A stretch of 64,000 nt of DNA from an uncultured Methanosarcinales archaeon (GTDB lineage Archaea; Nanobdellota; Nanobdellia; Woesearchaeales; JASKKU01). The DNA lies in assembly GCA_964416905.1 (NCBI GenBank), contig CAYQFL010000001.1, positions 94,647 to 158,646 on the forward strand. The letters run 5' to 3'. The notes under the pieces are model-generated. The model had not been told where the DNA came from, searched no databases, and saw only the letters and a program-made list of their open reading frames with translations. Both the position numbers and the translations under genes were made by a program. Shown here piece by piece: positions 11,704 to 48,604 of this stretch (positions within the stretch are counted from its first letter, which is position 1; each line of letters begins with the position of its first letter).

Positions 11704-11781
11704 ACTATCCATATAAGAAAAATTTGTTCAAAAATTCAAAAGATTTTTAACTGCACTCTTTCTCCAAACAAAACACTTAAG

Positions 11782-30400: not shown

Positions 30401-31452
30401 TGTAAAATAACCTGGCCATCGTAACAACAACTGTTACCTGCTCCGGGATTCTCAAAATCATCATTTGTGCCATCATCACCACAGCATTGGTCTACTCCAG
30501 AAAGCCAGATGTAAGCAGTACATCCCCTAGAAGACTCTTCACAATAAGTACTGCTTTCATCTCTATCATGATTAGTTGCCTCGCACCCTGATGTAGCATT
30601 ACAGGCAACATCTGTCACATAAGTTGAATCATCAACACAACACCAGGTCCAACCATTTGCACAAGAAAGCTGGCAACTGGTGCTGTTAGCATAAGAACCA
30701 TCATTACAAACCGCATCACCATAATAACAAGTTTGATTATCTACGTAACCCCATCCATAAACGCTTGCATTAGAACCGTTCTGTGCACTATTAACATTAC
30801 AGATAATATCACCATAATAACAATTTCTAACACTGCCAGAACCTAACAAAACACCATTACCTATCAAAGTTATATTTGTAACAAAAGAACCATCTAAACA
30901 CCTTTCACATTGCACATAAGTACTAGTACTTAAACTTGAGTTATAATAATAAGAATCGTCATCAAGCGCATCATCGCCACAACATTGTGTTCCAGAAACA
31001 ACTCCATCCATCCAAGTATACTCACAACCAGTTGCTGTACAATAACTTTCCTGCAAATCAGGATCTTTCCAGGTTCCCTGATCACAATAAAGGACATCTC
31101 CTAAAAACAAACCGCAAACGCCGTCAGGTGAACAAACATCAAACAACTCAAAAAAACCTATGTTTGCTTCAAGCGATGTCCCGAAAGCTAAAGCACCCGG
31201 CTGAAAAACCGTTAAAAGAAATCTCGCTTTAGTTGTTGCTGAATCCAAGTTAGAGCCTTGCAAACCCAAGGTTGTACTTTTAACATTAACATTCGTGCCT
31301 TGAGCTACAAACGCAAAAACAACATTGTTATTGATTAAAAAAACAAAAAACACAAGCAAAATAAGAAATAGAACGAAAAACAAATAAAGATGGGATTTTC
31401 TCTTACGGATTCTAAAATCTCCAAACAAAAAATTTTGGACGCCAAATCTCAT
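27424..31452 (-). CDS. Giant (1342 aa) secreted/surface-anchored Cys-rich protein with repeated 'CCGDD' modules and LamG/concanavalin-like domains
   Basis: N-terminal signal anchor (…HLYLFFVLFLILLVFFVFLI…). A ~500-aa Cys-rich region has recurring 'QCCGDD' motifs. Two Laminin_G_3-like segments follow ('DGDWHFIGFTFNGTNKRSFIDGV', 'DSWSYVVGVYNGTSINLFVN'), then Ig/PKD-like beta-rich repeats. Confidence 0.75.
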   Translation of the reverse strand: MRFGVQNFLFGDFRIRKRKSHLYLFFVLFLILLVFFVFLINNNVVFAFVAQGTNVNVKSTTLGLQGSNLDSATTKARFLLTVFQPGALAFGTSLEANIGFFELFDVCSPDGVCGLFLGDVLYCDQGTWKDPDLQESYCTATGCEYTWMDGVVSGTQCCGDDALDDDSYYYNSSLSTSTYVQCERCLDGSFVTNITLIGNGVLLGSGSVRNCYYGDIICNVNSAQNGSNASVYGWGYVDNQTCYYGDAVCNDGSYANSTSCQLSCANGWTWCCVDDSTYVTDVACNATSGCEATNHDRDESSTYCEESSRGCTAYIWLSGVDQCCGDDGTNDDFENPGAGNSCCYDGQVILHGSSYQYLFCWNGELYDCNNNVNLGFETDVADCSEADSSGWFCDADGDPAYWQDGLPLGCAGCDYNANCSQGYCDAEDGTTEPLYGLDIDPHYCFNCSECAGSPGNFVCSSVNTSLCQYDCAGPGGEDCDDIEPMTCRQNSDLYCDYGCISHDRDEGESYCTTTNGNCVALTWINGGETSSFGEYSAGNELECCGDDSGEYLVNSSMDSNYYAACCDDASDCVNSSNSCVPTGTVQNGFICFNARWDHLPTHDTPRIFLHAKVTDDLVGYWTLDDNVNDDSTYNNDGTNYGATNTLLGYSAGAFDFDGNDYIDLPADLGYSNQVSAFAWFKAEGAPPGGYHIVLGGQELEISVPTTGEVRTGVTTSNGRFVSNHGSGLTDGDWHFIGFTFNGTNKRSFIDGVDVGNLSVTGNLINSFSYRRIGRFGSSSTYYLNGSVDEVMIFNRTLTSKEVQELYNGVAYTKNDITCTPVNASDVDGDNLTYIVNWYKDGGSLLVLNMPFDSNVSSVSAGKVRDYSSYSNNGTLGGGNSNNAPTYKNGNNCMVGGCYEFDGNDYISIPTTAGGDFDIDTFSVAAWIYPTVSDANSRRIFQRASGTYGMYINSGRVYFYVDTTNDGGSWKSVSLPVTLDSWSYVVGVYNGTSINLFVNSNSNSVAQSGAVDDGATNVAYIGTHDSLSQFFVGRIDDFQIYNIALTSEQVKENYEAGLNHHQPFVLDYTMTSKHHNYSCDVTVNDGYGDSLTKSSAQIEVQNTPPTKPGLIYPGMNDILTNRQPQFQWSPVEDDDGDSITYNLDVTFDQCNTVNSEYCPGTNIHETGLTTLSYTPLQELDIAVYNWNVSAYDGENYSASSDLGTFSIEALINISLINDLISFGNLEVGKSYNTTSGSPQPFSIRNNGNVKVDIKANATQLFQRAALDTDAFRIKTRNLEANSINISGSAIDWINLASYLKKVIADLDYHDSSDEAYLDILVTVPPDEPSGTKTSNIIFQGELS

Positions 31453-33438: not shown

Positions 33439-34404
33439 CTAATTAAGTTCAAGAAATCTTTTTGGTAAATCCTCTTCTTTCATCAAAAGAACAACCCTGG
33501 ATTCCTTCTTTTCATCAACAACCTTCCAATCACAGAATTGAGCAATTTTTTCACTAAACTCTTTGACTTCTTCATGTAAGGGCATATTCTCTTTTTTTAA
33601 CCTTTTAACAGAATCACCCACATGCATGTATGCTTTAACCTCAACAAATAGAGGATTCGCTTTCTTAATCAATTCAGCATACTGTTCAGGAAAAACATCG
33701 TTAATACCTTTTATGAGAGTTATCCTTAAACAGGTTCTAACACCTTCATCCCTCTTCTCAGCAATTACTGACAAGGTTTCATTAAAGATAGACCATGCAT
33801 CTTTAACTTTTGGTCTATCAATTTTCAAATAAAGCTCCTCATTTGGCGCGTCAACTGAAACATAGAGCTGTGTTGGTTTTATTTTCTTTAAGACCTCGGG
33901 CCTTAATCCGTTTGTAACAACAAAAGTTGTGATTCCTCTTTTATGCAAATTCTCAATGAATTCATTGAGATATGGATACAAAGTCGGTTCTCCTGTCAAA
34001 GAAATCGCGAAATGTTTAGGATCTTGTGCTTCCTTAAGTTTTTCTCGATTAACCTTTTTATTACCCCCAAATCCTGAAAGCAATTCTCTTTGTTTTAAAA
34101 TAGATTCATCAATTATCTTTTCTGGGTCATCAGCAATATCTTTTGCTATTTCTTGAAATCCTTCAGTATCGGTAAAACTCCTCCAGCAAAAAATGCAGGA
34201 GTTTTGACAGAAATTAACTGATGGACTCATCTGACAGCATCTATGACTTTGAATTCCATAAAACGTCTGCTTATAACAAACATCTTCATCCAAAAGAGAT
34301 TTTTTTGTCCAGGTACATATCTTAACAGCGGTATTTCTACCTGAAAAGCGGTATTGTTGCTTTTCCAATCGTTTCCTGACATTCTCCATATCAAAGTTTT
34401 GCAT
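33439..34404 (-). CDS. taw1: tRNA 4-demethylwyosine synthase Taw1 (TYW1 radical SAM)
   Basis: The 'CQNSCIFCWR' radical SAM cluster motif, an upstream Cys cluster ('HRCCQMSPSVNFC'), and ~320 aa as in archaeal Taw1. Confidence 0.7.
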   Translation of the reverse strand: MQNFDMENVRKRLEKQQYRFSGRNTAVKICTWTKKSLLDEDVCYKQTFYGIQSHRCCQMSPSVNFCQNSCIFCWRSFTDTEGFQEIAKDIADDPEKIIDESILKQRELLSGFGGNKKVNREKLKEAQDPKHFAISLTGEPTLYPYLNEFIENLHKRGITTFVVTNGLRPEVLKKIKPTQLYVSVDAPNEELYLKIDRPKVKDAWSIFNETLSVIAEKRDEGVRTCLRITLIKGINDVFPEQYAELIKKANPLFVEVKAYMHVGDSVKRLKKENMPLHEEVKEFSEKIAQFCDWKVVDEKKESRVVLLMKEEDLPKRFLELN

Positions 34405-34517
34405 AAATCATAAAGGTAGAAGAATCTTATTTAAATGTATTTCCAAAAGTGTGTTAAAAAGTATTATGACACGCATTTCAACTAGTTCTTTTCAAAAAAT
34501 CAAAAATAAAAGTGAAA

Positions 34518-34530
34518 ATTTTATAAATGA
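34518..34530 (+). promoter_or_regulatory. TATA-like box (ttttataaat) upstream of the first Cys-rich paralog
   Basis: A TTTATAAA-type element ~45-55 bp upstream of the ATG at 34573. Confidence 0.3.
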
Positions 34531-34572
34531 AATTCCTCAAATTAAGACTATTCAAAAACTGAGGCTTGTAGA

Positions 34573-37500
34573 ATGAGATTTTCAATTTCCAATCGAACTA
34601 ATAAATTTTTGTTGTTAGCAAGTTCTGTTACACTGCTATTTCTTTTAATAAGCATAATTGGAGATTTAACAATTGTGTCTGCAGCCGATGATAATGAGTG
34701 TGGTTGCCCTGACCCTAAAGAACGTAGTCGATGTAACGAAGATTTTACTATGGTAATTACAGAACATTATTTTTGTGAAGATGGCGAGTGTAAAATGCAG
34801 GAGTTTAGTTCAGTTTGTGCTGATTCAAGTTATTGTGATGATAATGAACTTGTATATGTTGAAAGTGTTTGTGTTGCGCCAGAGTATGGAGTAGCATACT
34901 GTGACCTCAAAGAAACACGAACATCTTGTGGTTCAAATGCAAGATGCATAGTTGATAAATGTATCAAAGAACAAGACTATGAAGATTATGATTGTAAGGG
35001 TGACAATATAATTAAACGTATAGGTGTATGCTATGATGCTAATGAAGATGGTGACTGTAGAGATCCTGGTGAAGTAGATATTGAAAGAGAAGTGTTTGTG
35101 AAGGATTGTAACGACTATAATGGTTGGTACTGTTCTGGGGAAACTGGTCAAGAGTATCGAGATTATACTTGCAAAGCTGGATCCTGTACTTCTTATGAAG
35201 TTACTGACACAAGAAGTTGCCCTTCATCAGCACCTTTCTGTTGCAATAGCGATAACGCTTGTCACCAATGTTGCAAAACAGATGATTGTCATGAGATCTT
35301 TGGACTAAATTACTTCTGCAATTCAATCACAAACCAATGTCAATGCTCTCCTGAAGATAAAGAAGAATTGGGTGCGGAATGTGGCCCTAATGGTTGCGAT
35401 CCGCAAGGGTTTGGACTCTGTGATTCCGGTAAAGAATGTGTTGGAAACTTCTGTGTTGATAAAAAAGACTTTAGAACAATTGTAGGTTATCTAAAAGTCA
35501 TAGGACATAATGATAAGGAAATTCTTGTGGAATTAATCCCTTATGATTCTTATCAAGAATCTACTGCAGGCCAGTACTGCTCAAAATTAAACGAATGGTT
35601 CTTTGGAAACCAAAAATGTAAAGGTAAGGGATACAACGAATGTGGTGGCATTCCAGGCAACGATGATATTGTTAATTTTCAAGTTTCAAATTATGAACTA
35701 AAAGATCAGAGTGTTATAATAAACTGTAATCAGAGAGGCCCAATAGACGGATGGTGTGATGGCTCTTCAAGCACTCCCGATTCTCTAACAATCAAATTGT
35801 GTGACCCAAAAAGCAACGTTCCGTGCGATTCTTCAACATATCATATAAATTTAGAGAAACTAGGACTAGATATAAACTGTGTTTATCTTGACGAGGAAAA
35901 GGAGAGCGACAAAAATTGTGAGTCTGAAAGCAAACTAATTCTAAGAGCAGCTAACAATTATGAAACTTGTGATGATTCTGGAGAAGATGTTTGCATCATG
36001 GGCAGATGCGTGAAATACGTATGCTATCATAATAACAGAATAGATGGCAGCGAAAGCTGTGACCCTGTAGCGCCACAAACATATAACGCTTCTGGAACCA
36101 TAGTCACAGAGGACGACATTACATGCTCATTACTTTGGATGAACCCAAAAGATAACGATCTTTCCTTAAAACCATCGTGCCTAAAAAGTTGCGTGATTAA
36201 CACTCGAAACTGCGAGCAATTATCTAGTTTATGCGGGAACTACAAATTAGATTCAAAGGAGAATTATGACGAACTTTGCGATATAAGAGAAGAACCTTTA
36301 ATAACAAAATACCTAAATGGTAATGAAATTGAAATAACAGCACAATTTAAAGATAAACATAGTTGTGCTGAAAAAGAAGGTTACATTGGTGATGCCAGCC
36401 TGCTTTCATGCAAAGGTTGTTTAGCCATAGATTATGAGAATTGTGAACAAGAAGCCATCAGTGGAGAGGATAAAACTGAAAAAACTTGTAATGATGGTTT
36501 AAACGAAGATTACTGGTATGACCTTTTCATTCCTGAAGGGGCGGATAGATCTGAATATATTATAGATAATTATCTTAATGAATTTGGTTATTTTGATAAG
36601 GAGAAACTTAAGTTTGACACAAGCAAATGTTTTAATGAAACAAATTGCTTTGATTGCTATGATATTGATTGTGATGGCAAAGAGGCTATCGATGGAAAAC
36701 TTTGCAATTTCAAAACTGAAAGAATGTGTAATGATAATTTTGACAACGATGGTGATGGTTTAATAGATAGTGAAGATAACGACTGCAATTCAGAGGGATA
36801 TAACCCCGAATTATCCTTAAAAGGATTTTGTAGTAGTACAAAACAATGTTTTGATGATGATTTCAACGAATGCCTGCCTGAGGGTTATAAACAATCAGTA
36901 AATAATAAAATAGTAATCTGTAGTGCTGGTAGATGGATTTCAGCAATAAAAGCAGAAGCTAACTTACTTTATGAAAACGCCATAAATAAACAAAAGTTCA
37001 CATTATACTGTAATGATTTTGGTGACGCCTTTGAAGATAATCAAGGGTATGTAATTTCATTAGAAAGTAAGCTTCCGAGCGGAGATGTGCAGGTTGGCGA
37101 TTTTATGAAATCTTACGGGAGCTTTTATGGCAAGTTCTGCGCGTTCAAAAGCAATGAAGATTATGCTATTTCAACAAGGATTAAAGGACTAGAAAATGAT
37201 CCTTCAAGATTAGCATTTGCAATGCAGTTGTTCTCAACGAATCCTTCATGTTGCAATGGAATTAATGATGATTCCACAACAAAAATCTCTAAGTGCGATG
37301 AAAACATTTCAATAAACAAGAAGTATGGAATTGTAATAAAAACAAACGAAGATATTGATGGAAAAGAACTTTTAAAGACAGAAGCTATCAATGAAAAGAT
37401 AAAAGCATTAAAAGATTATCTATCAATAATAGGAATTAACAATTTCGCGAGTGATAACCTTTGGAGAGGTTCGTTAACAGAAGCGCTTGCTTGGAAGAAA

Positions 37501-37788
37501 TCTGGTGAAAAAGAATTATTTGGGATCGTTGAAAATATCAACGGCACAATTTATGCAGTGGTCCTACTTACAAATGTAGGTACCAGTTTTGAGGATTCCT
37601 GTAGCATTATAAATTCTGAACAAACAATTAAAATCGGAGAGAATCTTGCAGGAATATGTCAAAATGTAAACGACGATGACTTCATAATTCACTGGGCAAT
37701 TCATAAAGAGGTGCCTAATAAAGAAAACCTTATTAAAATCTCTTTAGACAGGTTTGATACATTAGTAAAATCTATAAAGATAAATTAA
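34573..37788 (+). CDS. Secreted Cys-rich protein, paralog A (1071 aa) of a tandem triplet; carries a DxDxDG calcium-binding-type motif
   Basis: Signal peptide (…LLISIIGDLTIVSA|ADD). A unique ~570-aa Cys-rich N-region is followed by a C-terminal ~500 aa shared with the next two ORFs ('GYIGDASLLSCKGC', 'CNDGLNEDYWYDL', 'KTERMCNDNFDNDGDGLIDSEDNDC', 'FYGKFCAFKSNEDY', C-terminal 'FDTLVKSIKIN'). Confidence 0.8.
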   Translation: MRFSISNRTNKFLLLASSVTLLFLLISIIGDLTIVSAADDNECGCPDPKERSRCNEDFTMVITEHYFCEDGECKMQEFSSVCADSSYCDDNELVYVESVCVAPEYGVAYCDLKETRTSCGSNARCIVDKCIKEQDYEDYDCKGDNIIKRIGVCYDANEDGDCRDPGEVDIEREVFVKDCNDYNGWYCSGETGQEYRDYTCKAGSCTSYEVTDTRSCPSSAPFCCNSDNACHQCCKTDDCHEIFGLNYFCNSITNQCQCSPEDKEELGAECGPNGCDPQGFGLCDSGKECVGNFCVDKKDFRTIVGYLKVIGHNDKEILVELIPYDSYQESTAGQYCSKLNEWFFGNQKCKGKGYNECGGIPGNDDIVNFQVSNYELKDQSVIINCNQRGPIDGWCDGSSSTPDSLTIKLCDPKSNVPCDSSTYHINLEKLGLDINCVYLDEEKESDKNCESESKLILRAANNYETCDDSGEDVCIMGRCVKYVCYHNNRIDGSESCDPVAPQTYNASGTIVTEDDITCSLLWMNPKDNDLSLKPSCLKSCVINTRNCEQLSSLCGNYKLDSKENYDELCDIREEPLITKYLNGNEIEITAQFKDKHSCAEKEGYIGDASLLSCKGCLAIDYENCEQEAISGEDKTEKTCNDGLNEDYWYDLFIPEGADRSEYIIDNYLNEFGYFDKEKLKFDTSKCFNETNCFDCYDIDCDGKEAIDGKLCNFKTERMCNDNFDNDGDGLIDSEDNDCNSEGYNPELSLKGFCSSTKQCFDDDFNECLPEGYKQSVNNKIVICSAGRWISAIKAEANLLYENAINKQKFTLYCNDFGDAFEDNQGYVISLESKLPSGDVQVGDFMKSYGSFYGKFCAFKSNEDYAISTRIKGLENDPSRLAFAMQLFSTNPSCCNGINDDSTTKISKCDENISINKKYGIVIKTNEDIDGKELLKTEAINEKIKALKDYLSIIGINNFASDNLWRGSLTEALAWKKSGEKELFGIVENINGTIYAVVLLTNVGTSFEDSCSIINSEQTIKIGENLAGICQNVNDDDFIIHWAIHKEVPNKENLIKISLDRFDTLVKSIKIN

Positions 37789-37806
37789 AAAAGATGTGGT
37801 GAACCC

Positions 37807-40245
37807 ATGGGATTTTTTGAAAAAAGCTCAATTTTTACAAAAGGTATAATGCCTAAAGTGTTTAAGCTTTCTTTGATTATAGCAATAATTGCTATTAGCT
37901 TGCTAATTACAAGTTGCGGTGATGACGATTCTGATGCCGCCAGTGAACCTGACGAAGACAAGATAAATAAAAACCTGTTTCTAGGTTATATTAATGTCAA
38001 TTCAGATCAAGATAATGCTCTTGTAGATTATTCAATTATTGGTAACAAATACAACCTTGCTTCATCAATTCAATTCTGCAAACTTGCTGACAACATTTAT
38101 CATCGTGGTGCTTGCGCAGGTAAGGCATGGGATGAATGCGGTTTCTGGGATTTTAAAATGAGAGATTTCTTCTACTTCACACAACTTGATAATGAAACGG
38201 CAAAGGTTACTTGCTCTCAACGAGGCATATTTGATACTTGTTCTCCGTCCGATTATTCTTCAATAAATGCAAAAATCCGCTTATGTGATAGCAATGAAAG
38301 CGATAAAAATTGTACTGCAGGTATTAATGAAATTCTTATAGACCTCAATAAACAAGGTTATGATATAGATTGTACACGGCTTTTTGCGTTAACTAGTGGA
38401 GCGGACTGTGCGCCTTCAGACTTCCTTATACTTTACCATGTTAATGACTTCCAACCATGCGATCCTTACAATGATGAACTGGTATGTGTTTGGGGGAAAT
38501 GTACAAAATATGTTTGTATCCCGAATAACAAGTTAGACCCTTACGAGCTTTGTGATCCTAAAGCACAACTCTTTAATTTAAGCGGAAGAGAAGTATCTGG
38601 TACTGCGATTAGTTGCCAAGATTTCTCAGGGGTGCCAAGCACTGAAGGAGGAAAGCCTATTTGCAGAGATGATTGCACACCAGATATCTCTGAATGCACC
38701 CTTGAGCCAGGTCAGGTGCTTTGCCAGAATAATGTGTTAGAAAGCTTTCCAGACGTGGGTTATACTGAAGTGTGTGAGTGGGGTAATGGAGAAGAGTATT
38801 ATCTTCATCCAGATGGAACTCAAAAAGAGAAACAGTATATCTTCAAAACACAGAGTTTCTGTGCTCAACAGGAAGGTTATATCGGCGATGCATCTAATTT
38901 AGAATGCGATGCTTGTACTGAAATAAACTATGACAATTGTCTAAGCGTTCAGCTCACAAAACCAAAAGAAGAAAACTGTGGTAACGGTTTAAATGACGAT
39001 TACTGGTACGATCTTTACATCGAAGGAGACAATAGAACTGAGTATATCGCAGAGAATTATCTTGATGAATATGGTTATTTTGAGGATTACAAGTTTGACA
39101 CAACAAAATGCTTCAGTGAAACAAACTGCTCTGATTGCCATGATGTTGATTGTGATGGCAGAGTTACCTTCGGAAACAATTACTGTAACTTCAAAACTGA
39201 AAGAATGTGTAACGATAACTTTGACAACGATGGCGATGGCTTAATTGATGAACAAGATAGTGATTGCAGTTTTGAAAGATATAATCCAGATTTATCGCTA
39301 AAAGGATTATGCGATGCTGAAGAGAAATGTTTTGATGAAAGTGAACTTGAATGCATAGATGACTCAGCAGTATTTACAAAGAATAATAAGGCATTTATAT
39401 GTAACGAAGGAAACTGGATTAACGAAATAAAACTTATCTCGGCCTTAAGTTATGCTAAATTAAAAAATCAACAATCCCTGGTACTTTATTGTAACGACCC
39501 CGCTGATTTCACAACTGGAAAAAGTTATGTAATCGAACTCAATTCTAAAATACGAGGTACTCAGGAGACGGTTTCCGAGTTCATAGGAACACAAGAACAA
39601 GCTAATGCACTTTATGGAAAGTTCTGCGCTGCAAAAAGTGATGACGAATATCTTCTCGGAACGATTTTAAAAAACAAAAACGAAATACATCACAGCATTT
39701 TACTATTCTACCCACTTGGAACAATATGTGATGGAATTAACAAAGATGCTGAGCAACTTCAAAGATGCAATAACACCCAAATGTTTATGAATTATAAAAC
39801 AGGTATAGTATTAAAAACAAATATCTTTAGTAGTGATCAAGTAGAATTATTTAACGGAATTAATGAAATCGATAACAAGATTAAAGAGTTAAAAAAGGCT
39901 GGCGGACAATACTTGGTGACCAATTCACTTGAAGATTTAGAGAAAACCGGAGATATTGAAGCATTTGCGTTGAAGAAAAATGAAGATAAAGAATTATTAG
40001 GTATTATCGCTAAAGTAAACTCAACTTGGTACTCTATTGTTTACATAAAAAATGTACCTTCATTTGCTGAAATTTGTAAATCTATGACTTTAAACATCGC
40101 AAGCGGAGATATGACCAGAACTGTCACTTGCAAGCAAGAAATAGGTACAAACAACTTTGTGATTGCATGGACAATACCTACAGAACAAACGTTAATCTAT
40201 TCAAAAGCCAAATTCGACGAACTAGTTAAGGAAATAAGGATTTAG
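37807..40245 (+). CDS. Secreted/lipobox-like Cys-rich protein, paralog B (812 aa)
   Basis: N-terminal anchor ending 'LLITSCGDDDSD' (lipobox-like). It aligns colinearly with paralog C along the whole length and with the C-terminal half of A. It contains 'CNDNFDNDGDGLIDEQDSDC'. Confidence 0.8.
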   Translation: MGFFEKSSIFTKGIMPKVFKLSLIIAIIAISLLITSCGDDDSDAASEPDEDKINKNLFLGYINVNSDQDNALVDYSIIGNKYNLASSIQFCKLADNIYHRGACAGKAWDECGFWDFKMRDFFYFTQLDNETAKVTCSQRGIFDTCSPSDYSSINAKIRLCDSNESDKNCTAGINEILIDLNKQGYDIDCTRLFALTSGADCAPSDFLILYHVNDFQPCDPYNDELVCVWGKCTKYVCIPNNKLDPYELCDPKAQLFNLSGREVSGTAISCQDFSGVPSTEGGKPICRDDCTPDISECTLEPGQVLCQNNVLESFPDVGYTEVCEWGNGEEYYLHPDGTQKEKQYIFKTQSFCAQQEGYIGDASNLECDACTEINYDNCLSVQLTKPKEENCGNGLNDDYWYDLYIEGDNRTEYIAENYLDEYGYFEDYKFDTTKCFSETNCSDCHDVDCDGRVTFGNNYCNFKTERMCNDNFDNDGDGLIDEQDSDCSFERYNPDLSLKGLCDAEEKCFDESELECIDDSAVFTKNNKAFICNEGNWINEIKLISALSYAKLKNQQSLVLYCNDPADFTTGKSYVIELNSKIRGTQETVSEFIGTQEQANALYGKFCAAKSDDEYLLGTILKNKNEIHHSILLFYPLGTICDGINKDAEQLQRCNNTQMFMNYKTGIVLKTNIFSSDQVELFNGINEIDNKIKELKKAGGQYLVTNSLEDLEKTGDIEAFALKKNEDKELLGIIAKVNSTWYSIVYIKNVPSFAEICKSMTLNIASGDMTRTVTCKQEIGTNNFVIAWTIPTEQTLIYSKAKFDELVKEIRI

Positions 40246-40270
40246 TCGAAATTTTTAACTGCCTTTTTAG

Positions 40271-42640
40271 GTGAAAAACATGAATTTTTTTGAAAAGAAA
40301 TCCAATTTAAAGGCGAATCTAAATGCGGGTAGATTATTTTTACTGCTTTTAGTAGTGATTGTTGTAAGCTTACTAAATGCAAGTTATGTGAACGCTAGGG
40401 TAATTGGATATGTGAGCATAAACCCTAACCAGTGGAACAATGTAATTGATTATTCTGTTAGCAGCTCGTCTACCCAAGCCACTTCAGCTAAATTTTGCGA
40501 CCTGGCAGACAACCTGTTTAATAATAACGGATGTGGAGACAAAACATGGGGAGAATGTGATTTCTGGGATTTTCAAATGAAGGATTATGTGTATTTTGAA
40601 AATATAAACGACAACGAAGTGGGCCTTACTTGTTCTCAACGGGGACTATTTGATGGCTGTTCAGGTTCTTCTGCTTTTTATCCAACAATAAAATTATGTG
40701 ATAGCAGTTATGAAAATTGTGTTGCTAATAGTGGTGAAATTGTTATAGACCTTAAAAAAGTGGGTTTATCTAAGAAGTGTACAAGGCTTGGTGCTAGCAC
40801 ATCTGGCGACGAATGTTCACCTGACGACACACTCAAACTTTATACAAAGAACAACTATGAAGTATGCGCTGAAACTCCTGAAGGTGCAGATTATGAACTA
40901 AGATGTATAAGTGGAAAATGTGCAAGGTATCAGTGCATAAACGACAACTATCAATTAGACCCGTATGAGCCTTGTGATCCGGGAGTACAAAAATTCAATG
41001 TAGGTGGTGAAATAAAAACTGCGGACGAGATTACATGTTTGGATTTTGATATGTATCCAAATAGTGAGGGAGAAAGACCAATCTGCGGTAATGATTGTAA
41101 ACCTGACCTTAGTATGTGCACATCTCAACCAAGCCTTTGCCCAGATTATAAAATTGAAAAATACAATGTACTGGATTATGTCGAAAAATGCGATTTAGCT
41201 AAAACTCCTGAAAGTTATGTTCATCCTGACGGAACCAAGAAAACAAAACAACATATATTCTCATCAAAAGCATTTTGTGCTCAACAGGAAGGTTATATCG
41301 GTGATGCTTCATATTTAGAATGCGAGGGTTGTACTGAAATCAGCTATGATGCTTGCCCAACAGTTCAACTCACAAAACAAAAAGAGCAAAATTGCGGGAA
41401 TGGTTTAAATGACGATTACTGGTACGATCTTTACATCGAAGGAGACAATAGAACTAAGTATATCGCAGAGAATTATCTTGATGAGCAAGGTTATTTTGAG
41501 AATTATAAGTTTGACACAAGCAGATGTTTTAGTGAAACGAATTGCTCTGATTGTTATGATATTGATTGCGACGGCAAAGTCACTTACGATGGTAAATACT
41601 GTAACTTCAAAACTGAAAGAATGTGTAACGATAACTTTGACAACGATGGTGACGGCTTAATTGATGAACAAGATAGTGATTGCAGTTTTGAAAGATATAA
41701 TCCACATTTATCGCTAAAAGGATTATGCGATGCTGAAGAGAAATGTTTTGATGAAAGTGAACTTGAATGCATAAATGATTCAGAGGTTTTTGTGAAAGAC
41801 AAAACGTTTGTATGTAAAGATGGAAACTGGATTAATGAAATAAAACTCATCTCAGCGCTAACTTATGATAAGCTAAAAGATCAACAATCATTAATACTTT
41901 ATTGTAACGACCCCGCAGATTTCACAAACCAAAGAGGTTACGTAATTGACATCATGAATACTAAAACTGCAACCGGTATGAACACATTTGATTTCATGTC
42001 ATCTCAGAGAGCGTTATATGGAAAATTCTGTGCAGCGAAAACGGATGATTATTATCTCATAGGAACTGTTTTAAAAAGCAAAGAGGCAATAAGTAATGCA
42101 GTACTCTTATTTAATTCAAATGGAACAATATGTGATGAGATTACAAACAACGATAACATATTACATCAATGTAAGAACACTCAAGTTTTCTTAAACTATA
42201 AAACAGGCATACTATTAAAGACAAATATCTTTAATGATGGAGCACAATTATTTAACGGAATTAATGAAATAAATACCAAGATTGAAGAGTTAAAAAGCGC
42301 GGGCGAGCCTTATCTAGGATATAACTCACTTCAAGACCTAGAAAAAAGCGGAGAAATTGAAGCGTTTGCGTTAAAGAAAAGTGGGGAGAAAGAACTACTG
42401 GGTATAATTGCTAAAGTAAACTCAACTTGGTATGCCATTGTTTACATAAAAAATGTGCCATCCTTTACTGAAGTTTGTGACACTATGAACGAAAAAGCAA
42501 CCTTAACGATAGTAGATACGCCAATTAAATGCCAGGAAATTAACAACAATTTTGTAATCGCTTGGAGAATAGCTGATGAATCAGTGTTGGAAGAGTCTAA
42601 GTATAAATTCGACAAACTAGTTAAAGAATTAAAGCTATGA
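40271..42640 (+). CDS. Secreted Cys-rich protein, paralog C (789 aa)
   Basis: Signal peptide (…LLNASYVNA|RV). It is highly similar to paralog B and includes a ~380-bp near-identical nucleotide stretch. Confidence 0.8.
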   Translation: MKNMNFFEKKSNLKANLNAGRLFLLLLVVIVVSLLNASYVNARVIGYVSINPNQWNNVIDYSVSSSSTQATSAKFCDLADNLFNNNGCGDKTWGECDFWDFQMKDYVYFENINDNEVGLTCSQRGLFDGCSGSSAFYPTIKLCDSSYENCVANSGEIVIDLKKVGLSKKCTRLGASTSGDECSPDDTLKLYTKNNYEVCAETPEGADYELRCISGKCARYQCINDNYQLDPYEPCDPGVQKFNVGGEIKTADEITCLDFDMYPNSEGERPICGNDCKPDLSMCTSQPSLCPDYKIEKYNVLDYVEKCDLAKTPESYVHPDGTKKTKQHIFSSKAFCAQQEGYIGDASYLECEGCTEISYDACPTVQLTKQKEQNCGNGLNDDYWYDLYIEGDNRTKYIAENYLDEQGYFENYKFDTSRCFSETNCSDCYDIDCDGKVTYDGKYCNFKTERMCNDNFDNDGDGLIDEQDSDCSFERYNPHLSLKGLCDAEEKCFDESELECINDSEVFVKDKTFVCKDGNWINEIKLISALTYDKLKDQQSLILYCNDPADFTNQRGYVIDIMNTKTATGMNTFDFMSSQRALYGKFCAAKTDDYYLIGTVLKSKEAISNAVLLFNSNGTICDEITNNDNILHQCKNTQVFLNYKTGILLKTNIFNDGAQLFNGINEINTKIEELKSAGEPYLGYNSLQDLEKSGEIEAFALKKSGEKELLGIIAKVNSTWYAIVYIKNVPSFTEVCDTMNEKATLTIVDTPIKCQEINNNFVIAWRIADESVLEESKYKFDKLVKELKL

Positions 42641-42641
42641 T

Positions 42642-43409
42642 TCAAGCTTTTGCGATAAAATAAAATATTTCATTTTTTGTTTTTTTATAATAAAAATCAA
42701 AGCTCAATCTTGACAACATTTTCTCTAACCACGTCCTTCTATGAAACCTCATATATTTACCAGACAAAGTTTTAAGCGGAAAGGAAACAATGAGATGTTT
42801 AACAGCAAGGCTTACAATTAATTCCTCAGCGTGCTTGTGCCCTTTATCTTCAATCAAATCAAGCACCTTAAACAAAAATGCAACATTGGCTTTAGGCAAT
42901 TCATCAAGTTTTGCCAAGAAATCCATCTGAACAGCCTCGCCATTAATCTGGTTCTTCAAGAAGAAATCGTTTACAGCACTAACTATGTCCTCGCGTAAAT
43001 CGCATGCAAAGTAATAATTAACCTTAATTTCGTTAAAAGGGAAATAAATCGGATTTAGCCCGCAGCCTAAATCAATAATTCTCTTTATTTTATGTTCCCT
43101 AAGGAATTCTATCACAAAATCAGGTAAAGAACCTCGCTCTAAAGAAGAAATATGCGTTCCTTTATCTTTAACATACATCACAGACTTCTTATACAATTTC
43201 GCTTTTATAAGCGAGACAAACTCTTTGAAGACCTTAGACCTCTCCAGATTTTTAACATTCAATACCTTTTCATATAGCTTTGGGTTTTTACGGACAACGT
43301 CAAAAAAAACAGATTCTATTGTCTCTTTAGAAAATGAAGAGTATCTCTTTCTCTTAGCAAGCACATTAAAAACCTCGCTAAGTACCCTTTCATCATTTAA
43401 ATGATTCAT
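42642..43409 (-). CDS. 16S rRNA (guanine1405-N7)-methyltransferase-like protein, Rmt/ArmA (FmrO) family SAM-dependent MTase
   Basis: SAM motif I 'IIDLGCGLNPIYF' (cf. RmtB 'LDIACGLNPLAL', ArmA 'ILDFGCGFNPLAL') and C-terminal 'LIVSFPLKTLSGKYMRF' (cf. 'AVSFPTRSLGGRGKGME' / 'FVISFPIKSLSGKEKGME'). The motifs are recalled from memory of the family; no search was run. Confidence 0.6.
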   Translation of the reverse strand: MNHLNDERVLSEVFNVLAKRKRYSSFSKETIESVFFDVVRKNPKLYEKVLNVKNLERSKVFKEFVSLIKAKLYKKSVMYVKDKGTHISSLERGSLPDFVIEFLREHKIKRIIDLGCGLNPIYFPFNEIKVNYYFACDLREDIVSAVNDFFLKNQINGEAVQMDFLAKLDELPKANVAFLFKVLDLIEDKGHKHAEELIVSLAVKHLIVSFPLKTLSGKYMRFHRRTWLEKMLSRLSFDFYYKKTKNEIFYFIAKA

Positions 43410-43490
43410 ACTCCTTACATAAAACTAAACAAAAGATATTTAAAAACTGTTCCATTCATAAATCATAATTTAATAATAATTACTTAAAAG

Positions 43491-45251
43491 GTGCCAAAAA
43501 TGGAAAAAAAGGTTGTCCCTGAGGAAATAAATCAGGAGTTAGAAAAGATGCAAAAGATGCTTGATAAGTTCAAAGAAAAAGTTTTAGAGAAATTCAGCGA
43601 TTATGTTTTAGGCATATCTCTTCTGCCTCCGCAAAAAAACGAAAAAGGAGAGAAAAAAGACAACAAAATTAACCTTCTAATTCTAATAAACGATAACGAT
43701 ACCAAGAAGATGACTCCTCAGGAACTGGAAAAGAAACTTAACACAATCTTTCAAAACATGGCTAAAGAGATAGACGAAAGGTTAAATCCTTCTTGTTTGC
43801 TAATCAGTGAACTATGGCAGAACTGTTATGAAGCCAAGTACGATTTCGTGAAGATGATTGCCACTGGTGCAGCCATTTATGATAAAGGCATGCTTTCTGC
43901 CATAAAAATTGCTGAAGTCCATAAAACCATGGTTCTAAGCAAATTTGAGAGATACATTGTCTCGTATGTTCTATCCGGGTCAATAACTCAAGGAAGAGCC
44001 ACAGAGAAATCTGATGTTGATGTGTTTGTTGTGGTTGACGACACAGATGTAAAAAAGATGACTCGAGGCGAATTGAAAGAGAAATTAAGAGCTATCATTT
44101 TAGGTATGGGCATTGAAGCAGGAGAAGCCACAGGGATACTGAATAAATTGAATATTCAAGTCTACATATTAACTGAGTTCTGGGAATCTCTTAGAGATGC
44201 CAACCCTGTAATATTTACTTTGTTAAGATATGGTGTGCCTTTCTATGACAGAGGTATATTCATGCCCTGGAAGCAGTTATTGCTTATGGGAAAGATAAAG
44301 CCAAGCAGAGAAGCTATTGATATGTTTATGAGCAGCGGTGAGAGAATCATCAAAAACGTTAAAACAAAAATAACTGAGATAGGTATGGAAGATATTTACT
44401 ATGCATTACTAACTCCTTCCCAAGCAGCATTAATGCATTACGGAATTGCGCCACCCACTCCTAAAGAAACGCCTAAACTAATGCGCGAAATCTTTGTGGA
44501 AAAAGAAAAATTATTGAAAGAAGAAGAGATATTAATCTTAGAAAGAGTCATCTCTTTAAGAAAAGCTGTTGAACACAAACAAAAGAGTAGAATCACTGGA
44601 AAAGAAATTGATGAATTGTTGGAAGAGGGCGAGAATTACCTTAAGAACATTGGTAAACTGTTTAGCAAGATCGACAACATAAAAAGCAAAGAATCATTAT
44701 CTCAATTGATTAGTTCAATAAAACTCATCATGCGTAAACTATTATTCTATTTTGGGTTCAAAAAAGTTGACGATAAATCCCTATTAACAACCTTCAAAAA
44801 AGAGCTAATTGACAGCGGCGAGATTGAAGAGAAATACTTCAAGACCATAAAAGAAGTTCTAAGCGCAGAAAATAGTAAAAAACAACTAAAGAAACAGGAT
44901 GTTGAGTTGCTAATTAAGAAAGGTGATTCTGCAATAAAAGCTCTACAAGATTACTTCGAAAAGAAGAGATTCTTTGATATTGAAAGAGCAAAAATCAGAG
45001 TAAGCTATGGAAAAGACAAGGTTGGTGAAGTGTTGTTCACAAAAAACAAAGTTTACATTATCAAAGATATAAAAGAAAAAAATTGTTTTGTCAGCGATTT
45101 GAAAAAATGGGAACTTAAAGAAATTAGCTTCGACCAATTAGATTCAGAAATCAGAGACGAGAAAACTGAGCTAAAGAAAGAAATAAGTGTTGATGAGTTA
45201 AACAAAATAAAAGAGACCTTTGGAAAAACTTGTAAAATAATACTAAAATAA
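43491..45251 (+). CDS. Tandem nucleotidyltransferase-fold protein (one degenerate and one intact pol-beta NTase domain) with a helical C-terminal region, possibly HEPN-like
   Basis: The second repeat has the canonical 'GSITQGRATEKSDVDVFVVVDD' (GS…DxD) motif. The first repeat aligns with it ('KINLLILINDNDTKKM' vs 'DVDVFVVVDDTDVKKM') but has lost the catalytic residues. The C-terminal part contains 'RKAVEH' (R-x4-H). Confidence 0.5.
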   Translation: MPKMEKKVVPEEINQELEKMQKMLDKFKEKVLEKFSDYVLGISLLPPQKNEKGEKKDNKINLLILINDNDTKKMTPQELEKKLNTIFQNMAKEIDERLNPSCLLISELWQNCYEAKYDFVKMIATGAAIYDKGMLSAIKIAEVHKTMVLSKFERYIVSYVLSGSITQGRATEKSDVDVFVVVDDTDVKKMTRGELKEKLRAIILGMGIEAGEATGILNKLNIQVYILTEFWESLRDANPVIFTLLRYGVPFYDRGIFMPWKQLLLMGKIKPSREAIDMFMSSGERIIKNVKTKITEIGMEDIYYALLTPSQAALMHYGIAPPTPKETPKLMREIFVEKEKLLKEEEILILERVISLRKAVEHKQKSRITGKEIDELLEEGENYLKNIGKLFSKIDNIKSKESLSQLISSIKLIMRKLLFYFGFKKVDDKSLLTTFKKELIDSGEIEEKYFKTIKEVLSAENSKKQLKKQDVELLIKKGDSAIKALQDYFEKKRFFDIERAKIRVSYGKDKVGEVLFTKNKVYIIKDIKEKNCFVSDLKKWELKEISFDQLDSEIRDEKTELKKEISVDELNKIKETFGKTCKIILK

Positions 45252-45274
45252 GTTTTATTTCTTAATTTTTTATT

Positions 45275-46360
45275 CTATATTAATGCTGAGAAGAACGAAC
45301 TTAATACCTTTACCAATATTGTAAAAAGTGTGAGAGAAGCTGCTAAAAAAGCAGGGATGTATTTTATACCTGATTTTAGATTACCATCCTTTATCTGAGA
45401 AATAATAAAAGCAGAGAAAATCGATGTTATCGATAAAACTGCATAAGCCAAATTAATGAATTCTTCCGGAGTCATGGTTGGCTCATCTACTTCAGTTATA
45501 CCTTTTAACATCTGTGTAATACCGGAGCCTCCAGCAACACTTAACGAAGACAAGTTCGCCTGACTTATTTTTGAAATAAAACTCTGTAGAATTACTAAGA
45601 ACTGTGTTGATAACGCAAAAAGAAACGGTGCCACAAAAACAACGATTATCACTATGAAAATAACATAACTAAGATTTGTTGCTGCAATATCTTTTTTTAG
45701 CTGAAAAGTATCAACTAATTCAGATGTAATCATATCTACGATAGGTGTTATTTTCGCACCGCTTTCTAAAGATTCTGCTATAATTGAGAAAGTCCTCTTG
45801 ATCTCAGCAGAATCATATTTGTTAGCAAAAGTCATGAGTGCTGACGCAGTATCTTCACCTATAGAAATTCGCTTTACAACCAACTGCATCTCTTTTGCTA
45901 AATCCCCAAACTCTGGCTTGATTGAATTCCACAAAGCTTGCTCTAATGTTGTACCGCCTTTAAGATTTTCAGATAGGGACTTTAGGAAATCTGGCAATAA
46001 TGCTTCCATTCTCCTGGTTCTTTGGAACGCTTGATAATCAAAGAAAAGTAGAATCCCTGAAACAACGATAAAAAAATACAGCGCTAAATACGAGATTGTA
46101 ACTACAAATATAGACAAAGGTTGAAGCACAACCATCGAGGTAACATCATAAAATCCAAAAACAGTTGTCAAATCAACATTATACACAAACCACAAGTCTA
46201 CAAAAATTACAGAAACTAAACCCAAAAGAAATAGTATACCTAGAATAAAATACGGTGGACTATCAAAACCCGCTTTGATAGAATTTTCGATTAATCCTTT
46301 TCTTAAACGAGTCGGAAATAGAGACTCGCCAAAACTTTTGAAAGTTCGTTTAAAATCCAT
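45275..46360 (-). CDS. FlaJ/TadC-like type II secretion system F-domain membrane protein (pilus/archaellum platform, C-terminal half)
   Basis: Polytopic membrane protein with a cytoplasmic helical T2SSF-like segment. It lies in an operon with a FlaI-like ATPase. Confidence 0.55.
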   Translation of the reverse strand: MDFKRTFKSFGESLFPTRLRKGLIENSIKAGFDSPPYFILGILFLLGLVSVIFVDLWFVYNVDLTTVFGFYDVTSMVVLQPLSIFVVTISYLALYFFIVVSGILLFFDYQAFQRTRRMEALLPDFLKSLSENLKGGTTLEQALWNSIKPEFGDLAKEMQLVVKRISIGEDTASALMTFANKYDSAEIKRTFSIIAESLESGAKITPIVDMITSELVDTFQLKKDIAATNLSYVIFIVIIVVFVAPFLFALSTQFLVILQSFISKISQANLSSLSVAGGSGITQMLKGITEVDEPTMTPEEFINLAYAVLSITSIFSAFIISQIKDGNLKSGIKYIPAFLAASLTLFTILVKVLSSFFSALI

Positions 46361-46367
46361 TTTCGCA

Positions 46368-47189
46368 TCATAGATTAATAGTTGGTCTGTTAACTTTTAT
46401 CATAACAATGAAAAAGTATTCAACTAATGCTAAAAACAACAAAATAACGCCATAAAAAAAGGGGCTAATCTCTATTCCAAGGAAAGTAAGGAATATACTT
46501 GATAGTCCAAGACCTAGCGAAGGAAAGACAACCGCTAAAACCAGGTAAAGTAAAACAATAGTGTTCAACTTTTTTCCATAAGCCTTAATTTCTATTGATA
46601 GCTCTTCTTTTATTGAATCAATCGTTTCTTTTAGAGTCTTGCCAATCTCCGCACCGGTTTTTATTGAAACAACTATAGGATACAATATCTTTTTAAACTT
46701 GATTGAAGGCGTAACCTCTCTAGCAGTTTCTAAAGCTTCTTCAACAGGAGTACCTGTATTAATTGCCATCACAATACCTTTAAAAAAATCTCCAGCTACA
46801 CCATAACTCTTAGCTGCATCATAAAGAACCTTCATCAAAGGTTCACCAGCGCTTATTTTCAATAAGATATACCTTCCAGCAAACAGAACTTCTTTATCCA
46901 GTTCTCTGCTTAAACGATAAATCTTCTGGTCTAAAGCTTTAAAATTATATTTAAAAAAAATCAAATAAAACAAAAAAAACGCTAAAGGATATAAGAACAG
47001 ATAATTGAAACTCGTGAAAAAAGCTAATGCTAAAACAATCATCGCAGAAAGCATCAAAGAAGCATTCCTGACCTTTCTTACATACTGCTGCGGAGTTAAA
47101 TCTATTTTAGCTAAAATTAATTTCCTTTTCAGATCTGCATAATTTATGGAAGCCATTTTATTTTCTATTTCGATAATACCTAGAAACAA
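46368..47189 (-). CDS. FlaJ/TadB-like type II secretion system F-domain membrane protein (platform, N-terminal half)
   Basis: '…AGRYILLKISAGEPLMKVLYDAAKSYGVAGDFFKGIVMAINTGTPVEEALETA…' is T2SSF-like. It overlaps the 3' end of the ATPase gene. Confidence 0.55.
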   Translation of the reverse strand: MFLGIIEIENKMASINYADLKRKLILAKIDLTPQQYVRKVRNASLMLSAMIVLALAFFTSFNYLFLYPLAFFLFYLIFFKYNFKALDQKIYRLSRELDKEVLFAGRYILLKISAGEPLMKVLYDAAKSYGVAGDFFKGIVMAINTGTPVEEALETAREVTPSIKFKKILYPIVVSIKTGAEIGKTLKETIDSIKEELSIEIKAYGKKLNTIVLLYLVLAVVFPSLGLGLSSIFLTFLGIEISPFFYGVILLFLALVEYFFIVMIKVNRPTINL

Positions 47190-48603
47190 GCAAACCTACT
47201 TTATTAACATCTGTTATCTTCTTTTCAACCAACCAATCTAAAAATTTCTTTTTTTCCTCTATGTTTTTGTAAACTTCTTCAGGTTTAAGTCCCGCATACA
47301 ATTGCATTGTCTCTAATAATCTTTCAGGTTTATTGAGTTGGACATACTTACCTGTCTTTAAATCATATTGAAAAATCACACGCTCATCTCCTGTTTCTGT
47401 AATTTCTGCTATTTGCAAAGTGACTCTTTTTCCAGTCCGTCTATTCCTATACTGTACCACAAGCATACCTAGTGAAGATAACATAAGTTTGGGAATATCT
47501 ATTGGCGGGTTTGTTAAACGAGATATTGCTTCCTTTGCGTTATTTGCGTGCAAAGTAGCATAAACTGAGTGACCTGTATGCATCGCTTCAAATAAAACCT
47601 CAGCTTCTCTTTTCCTCCTAATTTCTCCAACAATAATTCTGTCAGGACGCATCCTCAAAGAGTTGACAACCAAATCCAGCATCGTAACTTCGCCTTTACC
47701 CTCAGGGTTTGGCAATCTTGTTTCCATAGGCACCCAATGAAGATGTTCTGGCAAAGATAGTTCTCTGGTATCTTCAATGCTAATAATTCTTTGGTTCGCA
47801 GGGAAGAAATTACTCAATGCGTTAAGCATAGATGTCTTACCTGAACCAGTTCCACCTACGATAAGTGTGGAAAGCTCGTATTCCATAGCCAGCCAGATCC
47901 ATGCTGCGATCTCTGAATTGATTGTTTTAGTGAGAATCATATCGGTTATTGTCCAGGGTTTATCAGCAAATTTCCTTATAGTTAAAGTGTTTCCTTTAGT
48001 TGAGATGGGCGCTAAAGTCGCATTAACCCTGTCTCCTGTTTTCAAAGAAGCATCCATTAATGGTTCAAGCACAGTTATATCTTTCCCAACATCTCTACCA
48101 ATTAAAGTTGCGTAATGTCTAATCTTTCTTTCGCTATCCACATATATATTTGTCTTAACCCAACCATACTTCCTATGGTAAGCCCATACTGGCTCTTTAG
48201 CATTGTTAACAACAATTTCTTCTAAATTTTTATCATGAAGAAGGATTTCTATTTTGCCTAAACCTATGCTTTCCTGTATAAGATGATTAACTAAAAAATC
48301 CGAAGTGGGCTTATCTATATGCGGAAAGTATTTCTTTATTAAAACTTTAAGCTCATTAATAAAACTCTCCTCAAGAGATTTATAACCTCCTTCGAATGAA
48401 AAACTTATTGCACCAATATTAACTTTTGATACAAAATCCTCTTTAATTTTCTCAAGAAGCGCCTCAGTTACCTTACTTAAGTTTAGAATAGAAACCAGAT
48501 AAAATGGAACAAACTCATCTTCATAATCAACAATCCTTACACTAACTATCAGTTTGTTAAACTGAATTTCATATTCCTCTAAAAGCTTCTCTCCTCGAAC
48601 CAT
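47158..48603 (-). CDS. FlaI/TadA/VirB11-family type IV pilus/archaellum assembly ATPase
   Basis: Walker A 'GGTGSGKTSMLNAL', Asp box, Walker B and His box ('ATLHANNAKEAISRL') typical of the archaeal FlaI/GspE superfamily. Length is 481 aa. Confidence 0.85.
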   Translation of the reverse strand: MVRGEKLLEEYEIQFNKLIVSVRIVDYEDEFVPFYLVSILNLSKVTEALLEKIKEDFVSKVNIGAISFSFEGGYKSLEESFINELKVLIKKYFPHIDKPTSDFLVNHLIQESIGLGKIEILLHDKNLEEIVVNNAKEPVWAYHRKYGWVKTNIYVDSERKIRHYATLIGRDVGKDITVLEPLMDASLKTGDRVNATLAPISTKGNTLTIRKFADKPWTITDMILTKTINSEIAAWIWLAMEYELSTLIVGGTGSGKTSMLNALSNFFPANQRIISIEDTRELSLPEHLHWVPMETRLPNPEGKGEVTMLDLVVNSLRMRPDRIIVGEIRRKREAEVLFEAMHTGHSVYATLHANNAKEAISRLTNPPIDIPKLMLSSLGMLVVQYRNRRTGKRVTLQIAEITETGDERVIFQYDLKTGKYVQLNKPERLLETMQLYAGLKPEEVYKNIEEKKKFLDWLVEKKITDVNKVGLLVSRYYRNRK

Positions 48604-48604
48604 T

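Follow-up and report, generated by a model that had tools for sequence, protein, structure and literature searches.

Evidence for recurrent gene conversion confined to one module of tandem genes for Cys-rich proteins in woesearchaeal archaea

Gene conversion that acts on part of a gene while the rest of it drifts apart has been described in archaea and bacteria. The mtrA-1/mtrA-2 pair of methanogenic archaea shows domain-restricted, long-lasting gene conversion (PMC4632066), and recurrent concerted evolution has been reported across prokaryotes (PMC6053082). Among surface proteins, the babA/babB/babC adhesin paralogs of Helicobacter pylori evolve in concert and give rise to chimeras by intragenomic gene conversion (Pride & Blaser 2002, as summarized in PMC4552749). 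Here we describe three tandem paralogs, A, B and C, in a 64,000-nucleotide (nt) stretch of contig CAYQFL010000001.1 (assembly GCA_964416905.1, positions 94,647 to 158,646), deposited from an uncultured archaeon; this whole stretch is referred to as the window, its genome as genome 1, and all positions are counted from its first letter. Two short tracts in B and C are almost identical inside genes that are otherwise well diverged, and the best reading, to which we assign a probability of about 0.9, is recurrent, module-restricted gene conversion among neighbouring paralogs.

The locus resembles the mtrA pair in that adjacent archaeal paralogs have had one domain homogenized recurrently in separate lineages while the remainder differs, and in that paralogs within a genome are closer to each other than orthologues between genomes. 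The mtrA genes belong to a core metabolic complex and have been converted over very long spans, whereas the A/B/C family is narrow, fast-evolving, apparently secreted, Cys-rich and found in DPANN archaea, with up to three copies and short tracts (84-330 nt). The bab genes are also surface-protein paralogs with diverged ligand-facing parts, whose conserved segments are exchanged to produce mosaic genes. They differ in lying at dispersed loci rather than in tandem, and in that their conversion alters expression and phase variation and exchanges entire 5' or 3' segments, whereas at A/B/C it is an internal module that is homogenized. No phase-variation repeat was seen at A/B/C. The genes and the segments on which the argument turns, with tracts delimited on a protein-guided codon alignment of B and C, are as follows.

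34573-37788, plus strand: paralog A, 1071 amino acids (aa), with a signal peptide and a long Cys-rich N-terminal extension.
37807-40245, plus strand: paralog B, 812 aa, with an N-terminal hydrophobic segment that ends in a lipobox-like LLITSCG.
40271-42640, plus strand: paralog C, 789 aa from the GTG at 40271.
38986-39069, plus strand: conversion tract T1 in B, 82/84 nt (97.6%) identical to C 41402-41485, encoding GLNDDYWYDLYIEGDNRTEYIAENYLDE.
39070-39180, plus strand: unconverted middle stretch in B, 85/111 nt (76.6%) identical to C 41486-41596.
39181-39357, plus strand: conversion tract T2 in B, 174/177 nt (98.3%) identical to C 41597-41773, with exact runs of 53, 51 and 68 nt.
41402-41773, plus strand: the whole patch in paralog C (T1, middle stretch and T2).
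36496-36876, plus strand: the homologous patch in paralog A, 75-76% identical in nt to B and C vs 66% to its orthologue X in a related genome.

A preliminary description of this DNA had pointed to long identical runs shared by B and C and had taken them for a single near-identical patch of about 380 bp produced by recent gene conversion. The three runs it quoted are real: each has two exact occurrences in the whole window, one in B and one in C, always 2416 nt apart (54 nt at 38986/41402, 53 nt at 39181/41597 and 68 nt at 39290/41706). High identity over the segment is equally real (346/381, or 90.8%, for 38990-39370), and gene conversion stands as the mechanism. The extent was slightly generous: near identity is confined to two short tracts of 84 and 177 nt rather than one 380-bp block. 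Over their whole length B and C share 69% of nt and 60% of aa. Immediately beside the patch the values are 76-77% (nt) and 70-73% (aa), and in the distal parts they fall to 58-68% and 43-59%. That A is more diverged over the same segment also holds (72-80% nt identity to B and C). In the middle stretch the three genes are roughly equidistant, at 77-82% nt (A-C 82%, A-B 77%, B-C about 77-78%). A recent A-to-C conversion there was considered and set aside, as the A-C value of 82% barely exceeds 77% for A-B and 78% for B-C; an old three-way homogenization fits better. Both B and C are intact and collinear, each tract is internal with diverged sequence on both sides, and copy number is unchanged. 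Unequal crossover is ruled out by these diverged flanks and the intact copy number. The window holds three copies of the patch, those in A, B and C, and a search of it for further copies or donors found none beyond these.

Synonymous sites show that the B-C identity in the tracts goes beyond what selection on the protein would leave. The comparison used only degenerate codons with the same amino acid in B and in C, for which random codon choice with the family's own codon usage predicts a difference at about 51%. Only 3 of 83 such codons differ in the tracts (1/26 in T1, with a fraction of about 0.5 expected at saturation, and 2/57 in T2), compared with 44/111 in the adjacent, equally conserved 300 codons (Fisher 7e-10) and 150/373 in the rest of the gene (Fisher 1e-12). 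The longest run of identical codons in this set, 39, was not reached in any of 20,000 permutations (maximum 35; P < 5e-5); a third-position scan gives P<0.0002 for 38986-39360. Expressed as fractions, B-C synonymous differences are 0.38-0.43 in the flanks, close to saturation (about 0.54), vs 0.04 inside the tracts. Outside the patch the pairs A-B, A-C, X-Y, A-X and B-Y (X and Y being the copies in genome 2) are at saturation, with 0.43-0.59 observed and 0.53-0.56 expected. The same codon-run permutation test is not significant for A-B and A-C (P ~0.06). A GC-bias signature of conversion was also sought and none was seen, GC at third codon positions being 0.25-0.36 in the tracts vs 0.29 in the gene.

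Comparison with a second genome provides evidence of a different kind. Genome 2 (GCA_030445965.1, Woesearchaeota, contig L002) carries a locus syntenic with the window and has two tandem copies: X, which is cut by a contig end and is the orthologue of A (49% aa identity), and Y, the orthologue of B and C (43-46%). X and Y are only about 45% identical in nt over most of their length, yet 97-100% over L002 1372-1580 / 3757-3965, which is the same module as in the window. In the patch, nt identities are 0.753 for A-B, 0.762 for A-C, 0.886 for X-Y, 0.659 for A-X and 0.661 for Y-B; in the flanks they are 0.53-0.62 for A-X, 0.45-0.52 for A to B/C and 0.44-0.53 for X-Y. Site patterns change sides accordingly, with 45 in the patch for {A,B,C / X,Y} vs 1 for {A,X / B,C,Y} and, in the flanks, 24 vs 105 (Fisher 6e-23 for the contrast between patch and flanks). 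Neighbour-joining bootstraps upstream of the patch support (A,X) in 200/200 and (B,C,S,Y) in 199/200 replicates, while within the patch (A,B,C) and (X,Y) are each recovered in 200/200. Flanks thus group the genes by orthology and the patch groups them by genome, which is the defining signature of concerted evolution. This switch of topology between patch and flanks, together with synonymous homogenization limited to the tracts, sustains the initial proposal of recent conversion between B and C within a secreted or surface family. Paralog A is no bystander: it exchanged the module with B and C in an older round, because it lies nearer to B and C than Y does (0.75 vs 0.66), a closeness that conversion in genome 2 alone cannot produce, whichever of X and Y was the donor.

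The pattern recurs in a more distant lineage. Genome 4 (contig L008, 94 kb) has the same synteny, and its neighbouring ATPase is 70% identical to that of the window, vs 88% for genome 2. Its tandem paralogs P and Q share about 55% of nt as a background and 95-98% in tracts at 11720-11869 and 12020-12169, with synonymous differences at 11/90 sites in the tracts vs 186/399 outside (p = 2e-10). In genome 3 (JASKKU01), which shares 97% identity with genome 2, the A-type and Y-type genes are on two different contigs (JASKKU010000025.1 / JASKKU010000001.1). Each of these contigs stops within the patch, and the two have an exact overlap of 99 nt (L004:7961-8059; L003:1-99), the outcome expected of a de Bruijn assembler that meets a repeat of at least k; the public protein fragments P0009 and P0006 are these truncated genes. 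Over the patch, more sites separate Y' of genome 3 from Y of genome 2 than separate X from Y within genome 2, and the X-like stretch is longer in Y' than in Y. This suggests that conversion went on after genomes 2 and 3 split, although the overlap shared by the two contigs supplies some of this evidence.

How might such a pattern have arisen? In the proposed history, interlocus gene conversion (short-tract, non-reciprocal homologous recombination, for which the RadA recombinase pathway is assumed) would repeatedly have overwritten a central module of about 125 codons in neighbouring copies. An older round in genome 1 would have homogenized the module in A, B and C, whose copies are now 72-82% identical, and later events between B and C would have left T1 (84 nt) and T2 (177 nt) at about 98% identity, with about 1.5% divergence accumulated since. 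The two assemblies of genome 1 differ by 0.06%, so the tracts date from before they split. The escape of the middle stretch could reflect either two separate events or patchy heteroduplex repair. The same module has been homogenized independently elsewhere, in X/Y of the related genome and in P/Q of the more distant one. The sequences show the mosaic, the homogenized synonymous sites, the switch of topology and the recurrence. We infer that conversion is limited to the module because protein constraint has left no other part with enough DNA similarity to pair, and that each event restores the homology on which the next depends; selection in favour of matching modules may contribute alongside this homology-driven process.

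The converted segment is itself distinctive. In B numbering, the tracts cover residues 394-421 and 459-517 in B/C, 389-498 in X/Y, and 440-489 and 533-585 in P/Q, so that residues 459-489 are common to the converted tracts of all three lineages. No protein segment of the family is better conserved than the patch, in which many Cys, Asp and Asn residues are invariant; within T2 it contains an acidic motif with two further copies in the window.

39199-39267, plus strand: acidic, Cys-rich, Ca-binding-like motif ERMCNDNFDNDGDGLIDEQDSDC in B (residues 465-487, in T2), matched by NF033662 and by PDB entry 7plp.
41615-41683, plus strand: motif of the ERMCNDNFDNDGDGLIDEQDSDC type in C.
About 36715-36792, plus strand: motif of the same type in A.

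The NCBIfam model NF033662 (acid_disulf_rpt, "acidic double-disulfide repeat") matches with an E-value of 3e-8 and one unit per protein, below the family cutoff: A, B and C score 31.2, 33.2 and 33.3 bits and the isolated patch 40.8, where 41 bits are required. The crystallized Ca-binding C-rich domain of teneurin-4 (7plp) matches ERMCNDNFDNDGDGLIDEQDSDC at E 0.0016 over about 25 residues. When the 7PLP alignment is mapped onto the ligand list in PMC9058538, a mapping of our own, all nine side-chain Ca ligands of teneurin-4 (E835, D840, D843, N844, D845, D847, D851, D854 and D856) have identical counterparts, and the residues that match ligands are invariant in the A/B/C family. The teneurin C838-C857 pair also has a counterpart in the motif, while C852 is Glu here (over the same 25 residues, E 0.0016). 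The teneurin C-rich motif has been matched to thrombospondin type-3 (TSP3) repeats (PMC9058538). The closest known counterparts of the T2 core are the teneurin C-rich domain (7PLP; PMC9058538), the TSP3 motif and NF033662; it aligns with teneurin-4 with all nine ligands matched, but over only about 25 residues with marginal scores, and it is a single unit with no repeat array. From these sequence matches, the converted segment probably encodes an acidic, disulfide-bonded Ca2+-binding loop of the teneurin C-rich/TSP3 kind. AlphaFold2 models are too weak for a fold, both for full-length B (4 sequences, predicted local distance difference test score (pLDDT) 41) and for a 245-aa central segment (11 sequences, pLDDT 63, predicted template-modelling score 0.37). 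Each genome's paralogs share their own variant of the module: TERMCNDNFDNDGDG, [QH]ERFCNDGFDNDGDG and MEELYCNDGFDNNGNG.

Conversion here homogenizes rather than diversifies, since the converted part is the most conserved module, and the tie to antigenic or host-range diversification suggested in the preliminary description is at most conjectural. In cassette-type antigenic variation (Neisseria pilE/pilS, Borrelia vlsE, Anaplasma msp2), variable segments are moved from silent, truncated donors into one expression site, with a diversifying effect. A, B and C share with these systems non-reciprocal recombination among surface-protein paralogs, but all three are full-length with signal sequences, and it is a conserved segment that is copied. 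Cassette-type variation is accordingly ruled out by three complete open reading frames (ORFs) with an N-terminal signal or anchor and by conversion of the most conserved segment. Diversification of the diversity-generating retroelement type is ruled out as well, the conserved part being the part that is copied.

Could the identity be explained without recombination? Strong purifying selection on the protein, combined with the biased codon usage of an AT-rich genome, would draw on the facts that the patch is the best-conserved part of the family, with invariant Cys, Asp and Asn, and that most of its residues have two codons. This explanation is hardly credible: about 51% of identical-aa codons are expected to differ and 4% do, while 40% differ among adjacent conserved codons; the orthologue pairs A-X and B-Y differ at 28-51% of synonymous sites in the very same patch; and the patch tree groups genes by genome. 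A nucleotide element within the coding sequence, such as an RNA structure, an internal promoter or an overlapping gene, could constrain the DNA directly, and twin 83-aa ORFs in an alternate frame (38993-39244 and 41409-41660) might seem to argue for one. Their near-identical translations had been noted from the start and the ORFs judged spurious, rightly so, as stop codons interrupt that frame in A, X and Y. Nor is the patch conserved between genomes (66-67% for A-X, B-Y and C-Y, and at most 71% for other cross-genome pairs), and an element of this kind is extremely improbable. Predicted folding of the patch RNA does not surpass that of shuffled sequence (z = +1.03), Rfam finds only a tRNA-Thr in the whole window and nothing in the patch, and promoter-like matches are below shuffle expectation in a promoter/terminator scan that used a bacterial model and was uninformative. 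A very recent duplication of B and C, with flanks that diverged extremely fast and the patch as the sole unchanged part, would fit with B and C being mutual closest relatives throughout and with a family that evolves fast (orthologues at 43-49% aa identity vs 88% for the neighbouring ATPase). It asks for too much to be believed, given that synonymous sites in the flanks are near saturation (0.38-0.43 vs 0.54), beyond the reach of adaptive protein change, and it fails both on the 111-nt diverged stretch between near-identical tracts and on A joining B/C, and X joining Y, in the patch only. An artefact of assembly or polishing, with the two copies collapsed or homogenized, deserves attention in metagenome assemblies, as such repeats do break them (the genome 3 contigs end in the patch). 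It is nevertheless very improbable: in k141_664888, an assembly deposited separately, B and C match those of the window exactly although 14 positions differ elsewhere in 22.4 kb; the longest exact repeat of 68 nt is well below k = 141, leaving the assembly graph unambiguous there; misassembly at repeats deletes, duplicates or swaps flanks and does not make internal patches with diverged sides; and the pattern recurs in independent assemblies of other genomes.

A further alternative concerns the cause of conversion and not its mechanism. Conversion might be kept by selection, the paralogs needing matching Ca-binding modules for co-assembly or for a common partner. The same motif has been converted in three lineages despite different tract ends, each genome's paralogs carry their own module variant, and the genes follow each other closely, with spacers of 18 and 25-34 nt. 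On the other side, recombination would be expected to start in the module simply because no other part of the protein is so conserved, P and Q have a second tract outside the motif (B residues 533-585), and nothing shows interaction among A, B and C. Selection of this kind is a possibility that we hold tentatively and consider doubtful on balance. Several points weigh against recurrent module-restricted gene conversion itself, or narrow the evidence for it. The tract boundaries were picked after inspection, which makes the Fisher P values optimistic, though the permutation and phylogenetic tests are independent of the boundaries. P and Q cluster in every partition, so that genome 4 contributes mosaic and synonymous evidence only and no topology switch. 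Informative paralog pairs come from three lineages only, and genomes 2 and 3 do not count as independent. The sequences are without exception metagenome assemblies with no reads inspected, and the two assemblies of genome 1 may share reads. Finally, the direction from donor to recipient copy is not assignable.

The mechanism is textbook gene conversion, and A/B/C are a new, clear example of it rather than a new mechanism. In our literature searches we found no report of recurrent module-restricted concerted evolution in DPANN archaea, of which this locus is a clean and statistically strong instance, and it indicates that homologous recombination is active in these reduced genomes. There are practical consequences: conversion patches break metagenome-assembled genomes, as in genome 3, and they mislead inference of orthology and phylogeny in the family unless the module is masked. 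The locus also draws attention to a small, unannotated, fast-evolving secreted family in conserved synteny beside a type-IV-pilus-like system, a candidate cell-surface or host-contact factor to judge from its sequence and surroundings. A more speculative and rather unlikely idea is that the tandem proteins form one surface machine, or share a host ligand, in an episymbiotic DPANN archaeon, the Ca-binding module being a common interface kept matched by selected gene conversion while the flanks diversify for host range. If so, each lineage's private module variant would be a lineage-specific compatibility tag.

The window is AT-rich (GC 31-38%) and carries archaeal markers: a Taw1/wyosine radical-SAM gene, a MiaB-like gene, an FmrO-like methyltransferase and a T2SSE/T2SSF pilus-type assembly system. 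A, B and C, all on the plus strand, sit between the Taw1 gene (33439-34404, minus) and the FmrO-like gene (42642-43409, minus). They are probably co-transcribed, because only 18 nt separate the A stop codon from the B start and only 25-34 nt separate B from C. All three proteins are Cys-rich with a hydrophobic signal or anchor segment at the N-terminus, and by sequence the genes are read as a tandem array for secreted or surface-anchored Cys-rich proteins; a Pfam scan of the three gave no domain matches. Public gene calls make C 786 aa long, which implies a start at ATG 40280 (MNFFEKK...), like the MGFFEK start of B. Proteins of the A type (A, at about residues 40-300, window 34573-35480; X', P, Q and P0008) have an extra Cys-rich N-terminal extension, which B, C and Y are without.

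The family appears to be small and confined almost wholly to Woesearchaeota (DPANN archaea). A 90%-clustered collection of 5.8 billion representatives yields only A, B, C and one "Candidatus Woesearchaeota archaeon" protein, and a second homologue search with an 11-sequence profile returns the same four proteins only. An exhaustive HMMER search of 1.84 billion representatives gives about ten full-length relatives, the remaining matches covering the short acidic motif only, and a scan of metagenome contigs found no relatives. The family evolves fast: orthologues in genomes 1 and 2 (A-X, B/C-Y) are 43-49% identical in aa, compared with 88% for the adjacent T2SSE ATPase (window 47158-48603).

A weaker candidate for conversion lies further along the same two genes, and the frame noted above completes the list of features.

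39817-39894, plus strand: marginal candidate for an older B-C tract (C about 42218-42295), third-position identity 24/25, P = 0.017 vs the whole-gene maximum.
38993-39244, plus strand: spurious alternate-frame ORF of 83 aa (twin at 41409-41660), with stops in A, X and Y.

The stretch at 39817-39894 has only about 73% aa identity in overlapping 30-codon windows despite its 24/25 third positions; either chance or an old conversion event followed by non-synonymous change could account for it.

The surrounding synteny block (window 33439-50719) is found in at least four Woesearchaeota genomes (L002, L003, L006/L007 and L008). It comprises Taw1 (wyosine), the paralog array, the FmrO-like methyltransferase, an NTP_transf_2 protein, two T2SSF and a T2SSE, along with a protein of about 700-820 aa that has no confident domain. 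The array has 3 copies in the window, at least 2 in L002, 2 in L008 and apparently 1 in L006. Within the array, the two assemblies of genome 1 differ by one single-nucleotide polymorphism only, at window 35985 in A, which corresponds to the variant protein P0153 (ENA/Logan). A further B/C-type homologue, P0005 (814 aa, with a lipobox-like LLLSSCGC), occurs alone on a 2691-bp contig (L005, ERZ27248172 k141_717729) from the same ENA sample as the second assembly of the locus, pointing to a second related population whose assembly is fragmented around the gene. Just upstream of the array, a 1342-aa protein (27424-31452, minus) with two Laminin_G_3 (concanavalin-like lectin) domains is another likely surface protein near the array, and it is conserved in L008 (1319 aa).

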